In this document: one piece after another, positions 24,001 to 27,000 of the stretch
How positions within the stretch are numbered: position 1 is the first letter of the stretch
Layout: each line of letters starts with the position of its first letter
From: an uncultured bacterium
Lineage (GTDB): Bacteria > Babelota > Babeliae > Babelales > Babelaceae
Reading direction: 5' to 3'
Assembly: GCA_963717435.1 (NCBI GenBank)
Contig: OY970332.1
Location: 320,001 to 384,000 of the forward strand
Length of the DNA stretch: 64,000 nucleotides
Position numbers: made by a program

Positions 24001-27000
24001 AGAAAAATATAAAGATTATATTAACGACAAAATTTACCACAAAATTAATAACGAATTTACTGAAAGTGACGCAACTCCGCTTAATCTTGCAATAAATTAT
24101 AATTCTCCAGAAATCGTAAGAATATTATTGGCTAACGGGGCAATTATTAACTACAGACCCGACAAACAAGATAAACATGGCAAAAAATTAGTAAGTTTAT
24201 TGGAAATCGCAAGAAGACTTAAAAACAAAGAGATTGTGGCGATATTAGAAGAACATGAAAAAAAGATAAAAAAACATGAAAAATAGGTTATATATGAAAA
24301 AATTACTTTTTGGCGCTTTATTATTAAATATAATCTTGTTCACAAGTGCTCACACTTTAAAAGCTGTAATATCAACTTTGCCCTGTGCCAAAGTTCTCGA
24401 TTGTCGTTTGAGAACTAACGGATTTGGTTATTTTTTGGATAATACACAACTTATTGCTCAATTAGCAAATAAGAATTTAGATACTATGAAAGTTATATTA
24501 ATATTGGGCCAAGCTATAAGAGAGTATAGAAATTGCGCCCAAGACGACGCGCCCAACATGCTTTCGAGTAGATTTCAAATACTTTCTCTTATTTTACACG
24601 GTTCCCAGCCAGCTATTGATGAGCTTAATTTACTTAGAGAAGTTTTAAGCTTTTAAAATTATTATTATTTAAACTTAAGAAAGTTTAATGTCTAAGTAAT
24701 AATCATCAAACTTGTTTTGCTGAGCAAGATAATGTCCTACAAAAGCTATCATGGCAGCATTATCTGTGCAAAATTTAGGTGATGGGGAATAAAAACTTAG
24801 GTTATTATTTTGGGCAAATTCTACAAATCTGTTTTTAATATACTTGTTACAAGCAACACCGCCAACAAAAGTAATCGCGCGCACTTCAGGATATTTTTTC
24901 AAAGCTAACTGCAAGCGCTTTTGAAATATATCAGCCACGCAAACTAAGAGCGAACTGGAGACATCAACCATTAATTCTTTGTCGTCAGGTTTTAAAAATT
25001 TCTTAGATTTTATGTCATAAGCACCGAGCTCGACAAGATTATATAAAACCGCAGTTTTTAAACCAGAAAAGCTAAAATCTAAATTATTGTGAGTTAATCT
25101 TGGGTATTTATAAATATCCTGAAAGCCGTTTTCGGCAGCAAGTTTTTCAATTATTGGCCCGCCAGGGTAACCAAGATCCATGAGTTTGGAAATTTTATCG
25201 AACGCCTCGCCTGAAGCATCATCAAGCGTCTGCCCTATGAGTTCTATTTCACCATAATTTTTTACTAAATACATAGATGTGTGACCGCCAGAAGCCGTAA
25301 GACAAATATGGGGGAACTCTGGTGTGTTTTCCAAGAAACTTGAAAAGACATGCCCCTCTAGGTGATTAACACCTATAATTTTTTTAGATTTTGCCCAAGC
25401 CATACTTTTGGCAAAATTTAACCCGATTAATAGAGAACCTGGTAACCCCGGCCTGTTAGTAACAGCAAAAACGTCTATATCATCAAGGTTTTTGCCAGAT
25501 TTTGTCAAAGCTTCTTGAACTATATAATTTATTTTTTCTATGTGGGACCTAGATGCTATTTCGGGAACAACACCGCCATACTTTTTGTGCAGCTCAATCT
25601 GGGAATATAACTCACTTGAGAGTACGCGCTTATCTGTTTCATAAACGGCGGCGGCTGTTTCGTCGCAAGATGTTTCGATTCCTAATACAGTCAAATTCAT
25701 GAATTTACTTTCGTACTCACAGACATAACCGTTGATGGGACCGAAATATCAATTTTTTTTGCTAATAATTTATTGCTTTCAACATGTATAGGCTTTTGAT
25801 CTATTGCAGCGATAAGAGCATGATCAAAAGATTCTTGAAAAGATTTAATATCTTTTGTGTCATTATTTTTTAACTTCAAAATCAAAACTGGAAGTCGAAT
25901 GATCACAGCTTTGCCATTAACTTCAAGATTTTTTTGATTATCAAGAACCCTAAAGTCATCTACATATTCAGGATCAAGTAAAATTACGATCGCATTATCT
26001 GGCAATTTTTTCGGCATTTCTTTGAGATTAGTTTCTTTTTCTATGTGCCATTCGATATCGTAATCGGCTGAATTTTCTGATTTTGAGGCTTTTTCTACTT
26101 GGTTCACGTAAAAAATCTTACAGGGCAAATTCTCTTTTCTTTCAAGACAGTAGACATTTTTGTCTTCGGCTTTTCTTGAAATATCAGGGGTGACAATTAT
26201 CGTAAACGAACTCGTTTTTAAGTCTTCATGGATTATGCAAAAATTGGAATCAAAATTTAGCTGCTCACCTTTATAATATCCCAAAATTGTCGGTATATCC
26301 CTGACAACAGCTTTTGGCATTTTTACCGTGAAAATATAAGATGCACCAAAATTCTCAACTTTTTCAGGAGATTGCCCGAAATTATAGTTGCGCCCAGTTG
26401 GGGCAACACCAAATACCAAATCTGCAAAATTGTCTGAAAAGTTTATATTTTCACAGATAGTATCACTTCTATTTTCTGCCCTGATCAGACTTGGTCCGGC
26501 TAACAACAAGTTTAAGAGAAAAACAGATAAAAACATAAAAACCCTTTGAAATAAACCTAAATATAGCTTACCAACTCAATTAATAGTATATTAAAAATTG
26601 TAAGTTGTTCAAAAAACCTAACTTTTTGGCCAAATCTCATGAAACAAAAAATTAAAAATTTAATTCTTAAAGTTATACTCCAAGAACCAAGCCCTCACAA
26701 ATTGGCCCTTGCTGTTTCTTTGGGGATCTCCATAGCCGTATCGCCATTTATTGGGCTACACACGCTAATAGGCATAGCTTCAAGTTTAATATTAGGCTTA
26801 AATTTGCCATTAACTGTTTCAGTCATATACATAATAAGCAACCCATGGTCCATGGTCCCTCTATTAATCACAGATTACGTTTTTGGACACTGGCTATTTT
26901 CAAAGATTTTAAAACTAGATTTATCTCAGTATGACCCTCATTTTATGAATTATATAAATAAACAGCTAGAATATTATCTTGGAAAATATGAATTTATTGG

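Follow-up and report, generated by a model that had tools for sequence, protein, structure and literature searches.

The tsaD locus and its partner genes

The DNA analyzed here (referred to as the window) is a 64,000-nucleotide stretch of the 1.2-Mb single-contig genome of an uncultured member of the Dependentiae (TM6). On its minus strand it carries tsaD, encoding a tRNA N6-adenosine threonylcarbamoyltransferase (window 24675-25700). This gene had been described as intact in the survey's finding from which we started, and closer examination bears this out. The 341-aa ORF matches PF00814 over profile positions 2-264 of 264 (E 1.7e-85, 287.3 bits, cut-off 24.8), and its product aligns to E. coli TsaD (4ydu) with an E of 9e-75 and keeps His111, His115 and Asp300, which we take to be the metal ligands of the E. 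coli enzyme. Residue-by-residue comparison with 4ydu and 4wq5 places the HLEGH and CTDN motifs of the product at the His-x3-His and Asp positions, and its conserved motifs are all common to 30 TsaD proteins of the phylum. Judged by its sequence, the window tsaD is thus a normal, functional-looking gene, and its product is predicted to transfer threonylcarbamoyl from threonylcarbamoyl-AMP (TC-AMP) to A37 of tRNA. The two partners that complete the bacterial TsaB-TsaD-TsaE t6A transferase system are encoded outside the window and are both present and intact, again as had been claimed: tsaB (YeaZ; contig 661134-661547, minus strand) scores 58 bits on PF00814 and 105 bits on TIGR03725 (cut-off 69.3), while tsaE (YjeE; contig 723710-724072, plus strand) scores 109.9 bits on PF02367 (cut-off 26.6) and has an intact Walker A motif, GAGKTT. 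Candidate substrates for t6A formation are available as well, since A37 is found in 14 of 14 tRNAs with an NNU anticodon (ANN-decoding).

Directly upstream of tsaD, overlapping its start by four bases and regarded as translationally coupled to it, lies a 279-aa ORF to which no function is assigned (window 25697-26536, minus strand). Its N-terminus resembles a signal peptide and its AF2 model (pLDDT 74) has an all-beta core, predicted to be a beta-sandwich, with neither a Pfam match nor a fold match (best Foldseek E 0.05, best VIA Z 4.7). The family of this ORF is represented in 179 of the 189 high-quality genomes of the phylum and, by our reading of the coordinates, immediately precedes tsaD in 94 genomes, tsaC-bearing and tsaC-less alike; it is missing from the tsaC-less family f14 (0 of 2 genomes). 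The ORF was rejected as a substitute for TsaC on all of these grounds, namely its N-terminus, its all-beta model, the missing fold and Pfam matches, the adjacency to tsaD regardless of tsaC and the absence in f14.

Absence of TsaC/Sua5 and the emptied tsaC locus

The claim that this genome has no detectable TsaC/Sua5 was confirmed with a wider set of profiles. PF01300 gave no match at E<=10, while the control genomes were positive in 14 of 14 cases, and PF16861 (TobZ C-terminal domain), PF03481 (SUA5 extension) and TIGR00057 were each without a match at the same threshold, again with positive controls. A profile HMM that we trained on 29 TsaC/Sua5 ORFs from the phylum and applied with filters off to 17,397 six-frame pieces of the genome returned no TsaC/Sua5 either (best E 0.31). 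Its best match (contig 774613-776025) adjoins the ancestral tsaC locus and was rejected because its motifs are those of an ordinary aldehyde dehydrogenase. Across these profile searches nothing similar in sequence to YrdC, Sua5, HypF or the TobZ C-terminal domain was found.

In three families tsaC occupies one and the same place, flanked by folC-like and prepilin-like genes (G011 of f1, G107 of f13 and G237 of f21). The same two genes are adjacent in this genome (G000) and in the tsaC-less genomes G108, G236, G256, G245 and G170, separated by a spacer of 270-480 bp that holds no TsaC remnant. The emptied locus of G000 is a 298-bp spacer outside the window (contig 777521-777818), in which tblastn detected no remnant of tsaC (best E 0.15). 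Comparison within genera revealed traces of the loss. Of the tsaC seen in G107, G108 still has the promoter region together with ~7 codons at the start, and ~440 bp are gone, and in the pair G237/G236 homology ends at the tsaC start codon in G236, where 171 bp replace 916 bp. Further contrasts of this kind within a genus are G210/G209 and G256 against its congeners. The conserved empty locus and the deletion scar in at least one same-genus pair are new observations of this study. They establish that tsaC was removed from G000 by a clean deletion from a conserved ancestral locus, and that loss of tsaC in the phylum is real, recurrent and in places recent. Since the locus that bears tsaC in relatives is assembled and empty, the absence is no assembly artefact, as had been argued before.

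Distribution and conservation across the phylum

PF01300 was found in 153 of 261 genomes (G000 included), in 119 of the 189 of high quality and in 1 of 40 in family f1. The 70 high-quality genomes without tsaC are spread across 11 of 21 families, which we regard as many independent events. Earlier, smaller samples, in which TsaC was missing from 55 of 150 genomes and from 18 of 19 in the family, agree in direction with the 70 of 189 and the 39 of 40 in f1 obtained here. TsaD (E<=1e-30) was detected in 248 of 261 genomes, in 188 of 189 of high quality and in 37 of 40 in f1, TsaE in 186 of 189 high-quality genomes, and true TsaB ORFs in 38 of 41 f1 genomes, including 25 of 25 of high quality. 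TsaD is lacking from a single high-quality genome (G118) and TsaE from three (G083, G156 and G247), and each of these is tsaC-positive; TsaD and TsaE are therefore kept in 70 of 70 tsaC-less high-quality genomes, and the earlier statement that tsaD is retained where tsaC is lost holds throughout this set. Some lineages without tsaC at the ancestral locus possess a Sua5-type gene elsewhere (G260, and G056, which also has a tsaC fragment).

The conservation of TsaD was compared among the 30 best-scoring TsaD loci and that of G000 (15 tsaC-less, 16 tsaC-bearing). Invariant columns numbered 108 among the 15 sequences from tsaC-less genomes and 96 among the 16 from tsaC-bearing genomes, and no position separated the two groups. 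In this comparison TsaD is equally conserved with or without tsaC, and the TsaD-TsaB-TsaE transferase module is under purifying selection.

Proposed supply of TC-AMP by the host

The survey's finding had concluded that the host must be the source of TC-AMP or of the enzyme, unless an unknown enzyme replaces TsaC. The absence of TsaC and the retention of its partners stand, but the "must" does not, as there is a third option in which no t6A is made and TsaB, TsaD and TsaE are kept for another role. The reading that we favor, with a probability of roughly 45%, is that tsaC was cleanly lost, TsaD-TsaB-TsaE were kept, t6A is still made and TC-AMP is taken from the eukaryotic host. TC-AMP would then be made by host Sua5 and not by the bacterium, would enter most plausibly through a nucleotide transporter of these bacteria, and would serve t6A formation on the 14 ANN-decoding tRNAs. 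As every member of the phylum would have access to this supply, tsaC would be conditionally dispensable, which we propose as the reason for its repeated loss, unlike tsaD, tsaB and tsaE.

Three TLC/NTT nucleotide transporters are encoded in G000, at contig 6894-8294, 115908-117308 and 928736-930199, compared to none in any of the 14 control genomes. According to passages of PMC4776705, nucleotide translocases are present in all TM6 genomes studied there, and substitutions at key positions of some paralogues hint at other substrates. Members of the phylum are described as host-dependent in passages of the same paper as well as in PMC4378268 and PMC6561590, and passages of PMC10321239 propose host supply for Nanoarchaeum equitans, which kept KEOPS without Sua5. 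A divergent NTT paralogue considered as a loss-specific importer was rejected: it is present in 188 of 189 high-quality genomes, shows no anti-correlation with tsaC and thus does not track tsaC loss.

We know of no TC-AMP transporter, which counts against host supply, and this analysis identified neither a TC-AMP transporter nor another source of TC-AMP. TC-AMP is chemically unstable (passages of PMC10484737 and PMC10321239), and its transport was judged unlikely for N. equitans at 90 C (passages of PMC10321239). The host and the bacterial membranes would both have to be crossed by TC-AMP, which also speaks against host supply. Moreover, tsaC or a Sua5-type gene persists in 119 of 189 high-quality genomes, with G260 and G056 carrying theirs elsewhere, so that host supply, if real, would not be a full substitute everywhere. 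The enzymes that act on finished t6A (TrmO, MtaB and TcdA) are all absent from G000 and therefore provide no evidence either way on t6A being made.

Alternative explanations

A tsaC gene that is present yet was missed, be it for a gap in the assembly, its location on an unbinned replicon or its extreme divergence, is extremely improbable. The marker-based completeness of G000 is 88.8%, its contig ends do not overlap, and the phylum's vertical TsaC is itself divergent (93-97 bits on TIGR00057, below the cut-off of 123.2), but the assembly covers the ancestral locus and shows it empty here and in five further genomes, two same-genus pairs display traces of deletion, several single-contig genomes of f1 also are without tsaC (G005, G007 and G009) and the filterless phylum-specific HMM had no match. 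Rather unlikely, in our assessment, is an unrecognised bacterial enzyme, non-homologous or promiscuous (e.g. another adenylate-forming enzyme), that makes TC-AMP, or a TsaD route without TsaC, which would already exist phylum-wide and render tsaC redundant. Repeated, recent and clean deletions demand compensation that was in place beforehand, and their number and independence make it unlikely that a substitute was gained separately by each lineage. The retention of TsaB, TsaD and TsaE in 70 of 70 tsaC-less high-quality genomes also favors such an enzyme, as does the large part of such a genome that is without assigned function, for example the conserved tsaD-adjacent ORF. However, the profile searches found nothing in G000 with sequence resemblance to YrdC, Sua5, HypF or the TobZ C-terminal domain, the sole gene tightly linked to tsaD encodes, according to its model, a secreted-looking beta-sandwich and not an alpha/beta ATP-using fold, and an intrinsic enzyme everywhere leaves unexplained why 119 of 189 genomes keep tsaC/Sua5, some with an apparently re-acquired Sua5-type gene. 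Across the phylum as a whole, we consider it improbable that there is an unrecognised way to TC-AMP that does not involve the YrdC fold, be it a non-homologous synthase of the bacterium's own or a route devoted to taking up host-made TC-AMP; the phylum-specific, secreted-looking beta-sandwich protein, whose gene in nearly all genomes is predicted to share a transcript with tsaD, might conceivably be part of such a route.

It is also unlikely that lineages without tsaC have ceased to make t6A and keep TsaD, TsaB and TsaE for another, t6A-independent essential role. The modification is dispensable in some bacteria, and G000 has no t6A-dependent downstream enzyme. Translation without t6A in such organisms is left open in passages of PMC10321239. 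On the other hand, TC-AMP-dependent t6A transfer is the only joint function established for TsaD, TsaB and TsaE, and all three persist wherever a high-quality genome lacks tsaC. The TsaD metal ligands and nucleotide-binding motifs as well as the TsaE Walker A motif are intact, and no TsaD residue distinguishes tsaC-less from tsaC-bearing genomes, even in f1 with its old loss (39 of 40 genomes). Uptake or recruitment of the host Sua5 protein itself, instead of its product, is very unlikely, as we know of no system by which bacteria of this kind would import cytosolic proteins of the host. This possibility was raised for N. equitans in passages of PMC10321239, which cite the import of Sua5 into yeast mitochondria as a precedent.

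Comparison with known systems

Loss of the TC-AMP synthase gene with a retained transferase has its closest parallel among the DPANN archaea, the only organisms named as lacking the gene in passages of PMC10321239, as the survey's finding had stated. According to these passages, the DPANN ectosymbionts Nanoarchaeum equitans and Nanobdella aerobiophila are without Sua5/TsaC, while N. equitans keeps KEOPS/Kae1. Like N. equitans, the organism studied here is presumably host-dependent, has a small genome, has lost the gene for TC-AMP synthase and kept the TC-AMP-using transferase, and it raises the same question about the donor. In contrast to N. equitans with its KEOPS, it is a bacterium with TsaD-TsaB-TsaE, and whereas N. 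equitans lives at 90 C, the partner here is presumably a mesophilic eukaryote, so that TC-AMP would be far more stable. The two cases also differ in that many loss events are seen here (70 of 189 high-quality genomes, 11 of 21 families), with same-genus pairs that have and lack tsaC and with deletion scars. The pattern mirrors, in bacteria and on the scale of a phylum, what has been published for Nanoarchaeum.

That reduced bacteria lose tsaC has precedents, the gene being absent in Buchnera and patchy in CPR bacteria. Buchnera aphidicola BCc, likewise a reduced intracellular bacterium, is without tsaC while its co-symbiont Serratia symbiotica has the gene, and the authors suggest that the partner supplies missing translation-related functions (passages of PMC9035817 and PMC5013485). 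That case, however, concerns one insect endosymbiont with an extremely reduced genome, and the donor suggested for it is another bacterium, its co-symbiont, whereas the present pattern is phylum-wide and concerns genomes of 0.8-2 Mb. In the CPR/Patescibacteria, also a host-dependent bacterial radiation with small genomes, tsaC is among the factors conserved in only 10-90% of genomes; that study took tsaC as a ribosome-biogenesis factor and added six Dependentiae genomes (passages of bioRxiv 10.1101/2024.11.29.625318). The mitochondrial t6A pathway similarly places a bacterial-type TsaD homologue, Qri7, in a compartment that does not encode the TC-AMP synthase, the Sua5 gene being nuclear. It differs in that yeast Sua5 protein is imported into the organelle (cited in passages of PMC10321239), while the present case concerns an autonomous bacterium without a known import system. 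Our literature searches on TsaC/Sua5, t6A and tRNA modification in Dependentiae/TM6 turned up no paper that treats this subject. The main texts of PMC4776705, PMC4378268 and PMC6561590 do not mention YrdC, Sua5 or threonylcarbamoyl, and one supplement of PMC10321239 has no Dependentiae entry.

Significance

TsaC/Sua5 is one of roughly 60 proteins regarded as truly universal (passages of PMC10321239). How t6A is supplied without it is an acknowledged question that has so far been posed for a hyperthermophilic archaeon that cannot be cultivated alone. The phylum investigated here is a better test system, being mesophilic, with what we take to be dozens of independent losses and a conserved transferase module. 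The same-genus pairs with and without tsaC make the question testable, and some members of the phylum can be cultured in amoebae or flagellates (PMC4378268, PMC6561590). Possible outcomes include cross-kingdom sharing of a labile intermediate of tRNA modification, the discovery of a new enzyme, or an organism that lives without t6A. If an unrecognised non-YrdC route to TC-AMP were true, the "universal" TsaC/Sua5 would be dispensable and would have been deleted repeatedly.

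Distribution of TsaC/Sua5 and of the transferase module

Counting the genome under study, TsaC/Sua5 (PF01300) was found in 153 of the 261 genomes of the phylum, in 119 of the 189 of high quality (completeness of 90% or more, contamination of 5% or less) and in only one of the 40 genomes of its family, f1. Elsewhere it was carried by 0/6, 0/8 and 1/5 genomes of families f14, f19 and f13, respectively, and 11 of the 21 families contain genomes without it. TsaD (E<=1e-30) was detected in 248/261 genomes, 188/189 of high quality and 37/40 of f1, while TsaE was present in 186/189 high-quality genomes and all 26 high-quality members of f1. 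The single high-quality genome without TsaD (G118) and those without TsaE (G083, G156 and G247) all have tsaC; therefore, both proteins are kept in 70/70 tsaC-less high-quality genomes. True TsaB ORFs, analyzed for f1 only, were found in 38/41 genomes (25/25 of high quality), the exceptions being G021 (82% complete), G013 (88%) and G033 (74%), in which TsaB is a fragment with five stops.

The genome under study is a single contig of 1,198,203 bp (34.6% G+C, zero N) with no overlap between its ends. Its 341-aa tsaD ORF (window 24675-25700, minus strand) is covered end to end by PF00814 (TsaD family; E 1.7e-85, 287 bits), and the product aligned with the E. coli TsaD structure 4ydu (E 9e-75). 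In this alignment His111, His115 and Asp300, which we take to be the metal ligands of TsaD, are kept within HLEGH and CTDN. Further ORFs near tsaD encode a DUF2062 membrane protein (window 26639-27121, plus strand; PF09835, E 1.8e-24) as well as Rho-like (window 21821-23131, plus strand) and SmpB-like (window 27099-27560, plus strand) proteins, the latter two read from the sequence with no profile scan. The module is completed by tsaB (contig 661134-661547, minus strand; 58 bits with PF00814, 105 bits with TIGR03725), with rsmE-like and yqgF-like neighbors, and tsaE (contig 723710-724072, plus strand; 109.9 bits; Walker A motif GAGKTT). Directly past tsaE lies a tRNA cluster of five genes (Tyr, Gly, Thr, Thr and Trp; contig 724668-725468, at most 560 bp after tsaE), two of which encode t6A substrates. 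ARAGORN found 35 tRNAs in the genome, and A37 was present in each of the 14 ANN decoders, whose anticodons end in U.

Many genomes of the phylum contain a single in-frame TAA, TAG or TGA inside otherwise full-length conserved genes, e.g. folC of G108 and G260 and many NTT genes, reflecting either long-read sequencing errors or many young pseudogenes. No such stops were seen in tsaD, tsaB or tsaE of the genome under study.

Searches for a TC-AMP synthase

PF01300 (controls positive 14/14), PF03481 (SUA5 domain), TIGR00057 and PF16861 (C-terminal YrdC-like domain in carbamoyltransferases of the TobZ type) each gave zero matches at E<=10 in the genome under study, with positive controls throughout. 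A custom HMM built from 29 TsaC/Sua5 ORFs of the phylum and run with speed filters off against 17,397 six-frame pieces of at least 30 aa reached a top E of only 0.31. This match was rejected as TsaC, the ORF being an aldehyde dehydrogenase (contig 774610-775983, minus strand) with the folC-like gene on one side and an ATP-synthase-a-like membrane gene on the other. Since G011, the sole tsaC carrier among the 40 f1 genomes, has only an 88-aa ORF at this position, the aldehyde dehydrogenase gene is a lineage-specific insertion adjoining the former tsaC locus.

The 279-aa ORF with a 4-base overlap with the tsaD start (window 25697-26536, minus strand) was considered as a TsaC substitute and rejected on account of its predicted all-beta core and its occurrence irrespective of tsaC state. 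Its N-terminus resembles a signal peptide, and no Pfam family was found for it; the AF2 model (pLDDT 74) consists of a beta-sandwich core and a C-terminal helix, with no convincing fold match (Foldseek top E 0.05, VIA top Z 4.7). The family is phylum-specific, occurs in 179/189 high-quality genomes and, by coordinates, is the immediate upstream, same-strand neighbor of tsaD in 94 genomes with or without tsaC, and is located within 2 kb of it in two more.

The ancestral tsaC locus and its deletion

In G011 tsaC is flanked by orthologues of the folC-like (contig 776099-777520, minus strand) and prepilin-like (contig 777819-778319, plus strand) genes of the genome under study, and it occupies the same place in G107 (f13) and G237 (f21). 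This interval, newly described here as a tsaC locus, is therefore the ancestral position. The short TsaC proteins encoded there contain the KxR and SxN motifs (named as in PMC10484737). Their best NCBIfam match is the TC-AMP synthase model TIGR00057, at 93-97 bits (L071:9370-10029, L073:8098-8739 and L074:8394-9152, loci from other genomes); because the curated cut-off is 123.2, automatic annotation may leave these vertically inherited genes unnamed.

In the genome under study the two flanking genes are adjacent, and no TsaC-like remnant was found in the 298-bp spacer (22% G+C). The same flanks are adjacent in five tsaC-less genomes of three other families (G108, G236, G256, G245 and G170), whose spacers of 270-480 bp likewise yielded no remnant (top TsaC-HMM E ~0.5). 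Two of these have tsaC-bearing relatives in the same genus. The alignment of G108 (L075, C2, 1048-1500) with G107 (L073, C1, 7906-8815) spans the intergenic/promoter region and the first ~7 tsaC codons, with aa 2-7 identical, after which ~440 bp are missing from G108. Between G236 and G237 the alignment ends at the tsaC start codon, where G236 has 171 bp in place of the 916 bp of G237. Both breakpoints are deletion scars. The empty loci and the scars thus establish the absence of tsaC as real and repeated; the survey's finding is no artefact of an 88.8% "complete" assembly, as the ancestral locus is assembled and empty.

Sua5-type genes, distinct from the vertical short TsaC, account for 15 of the listed PF01300 matches and encode 320-348 aa, except for a 186-aa open frame in G075. 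The folC neighborhood was examined in five carriers. The ancestral locus is empty in G260, which has its Sua5-type gene at another place, while G056 retains a 97-aa TsaC fragment beside folC (L128, C4, 659-952, minus strand; E 2.9e-15) together with a full Sua5-type gene elsewhere, which looks like displacement in progress. No TsaC was found beside folC in G060 and G137, and folC of G071 was not found with the query used. Thus, tsaC was replaced in some lineages and simply lost in others.

Conservation of TsaD after tsaC loss

The loss in f1 is old, since 39/40 genomes spanning 20 genera are without tsaC. In a selected sample, the genome under study plus the 30 best-scoring TsaD loci of the phylum, 108 columns were invariant among 15 tsaC-less and 96 among 16 tsaC-bearing sequences; all canonical motifs were kept, and no column differed in majority residue between the two groups. 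Identity of its TsaD to these 30 loci was 58-66% regardless of tsaC state, and TsaD scores ranged from 283-308 bits in f1 versus 280-314 bits outside. Judged by these sequences, the transferase of tsaC-less genomes appears free of decay.

Source of TC-AMP

Independent deletions of tsaC are many and some are recent, which implies a means of compensation that predates them throughout the phylum; a separate gain of a substitute ahead of each loss is unlikely. Of three readings that remain, the one in which t6A is absent and TsaBDE serves a different role is disfavored by the joint retention of TsaD, TsaB and TsaE with unchanged active sites, even though TrmO, MtaB and TcdA, which would prove that t6A exists, are all absent from the genome under study. 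The other two readings each propose a source of TC-AMP. One is an intrinsic, unrecognized synthase, for which the sequence searches of this genome gave no candidate. The other is supply by the host: phylum members are described as intracellular parasites of protists in PMC4378268 and PMC6561590, and the genome encodes three NTT nucleotide transporters versus 0/14 free-living controls. According to a portion of PMC4776705, NTT-type translocases occur in all TM6 genomes studied and paralogues may carry other substrates. However, no TC-AMP carrier is known, the majority of genomes retain a synthase, and the divergent NTT paralogue tested gives no signal because it is universal (188/189 high-quality genomes). 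Host supply was raised already for Nanoarchaeum equitans in passages of PMC10321239, which doubt TC-AMP transport there owing to instability at 90 C, an objection that would be weaker for a mesophile.

N. equitans shows the same pattern, with the synthase gone and the transferase kept (same passages). According to other papers, Buchnera BCc lacks tsaC (PMC9035817), and the gene's occurrence among CPR bacteria is patchy (bioRxiv 10.1101/2024.11.29.625318). The pattern is thus already published and the phylum is a further case; no literature connecting it with t6A, TsaC or Sua5 was found, supplements of TM6 genome papers being outside the scope. As an observation, the absence of tsaC with the transferase kept is well supported. 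Its main value is that the phylum's culturable members and the same-genus pairs with and without tsaC permit a direct test.
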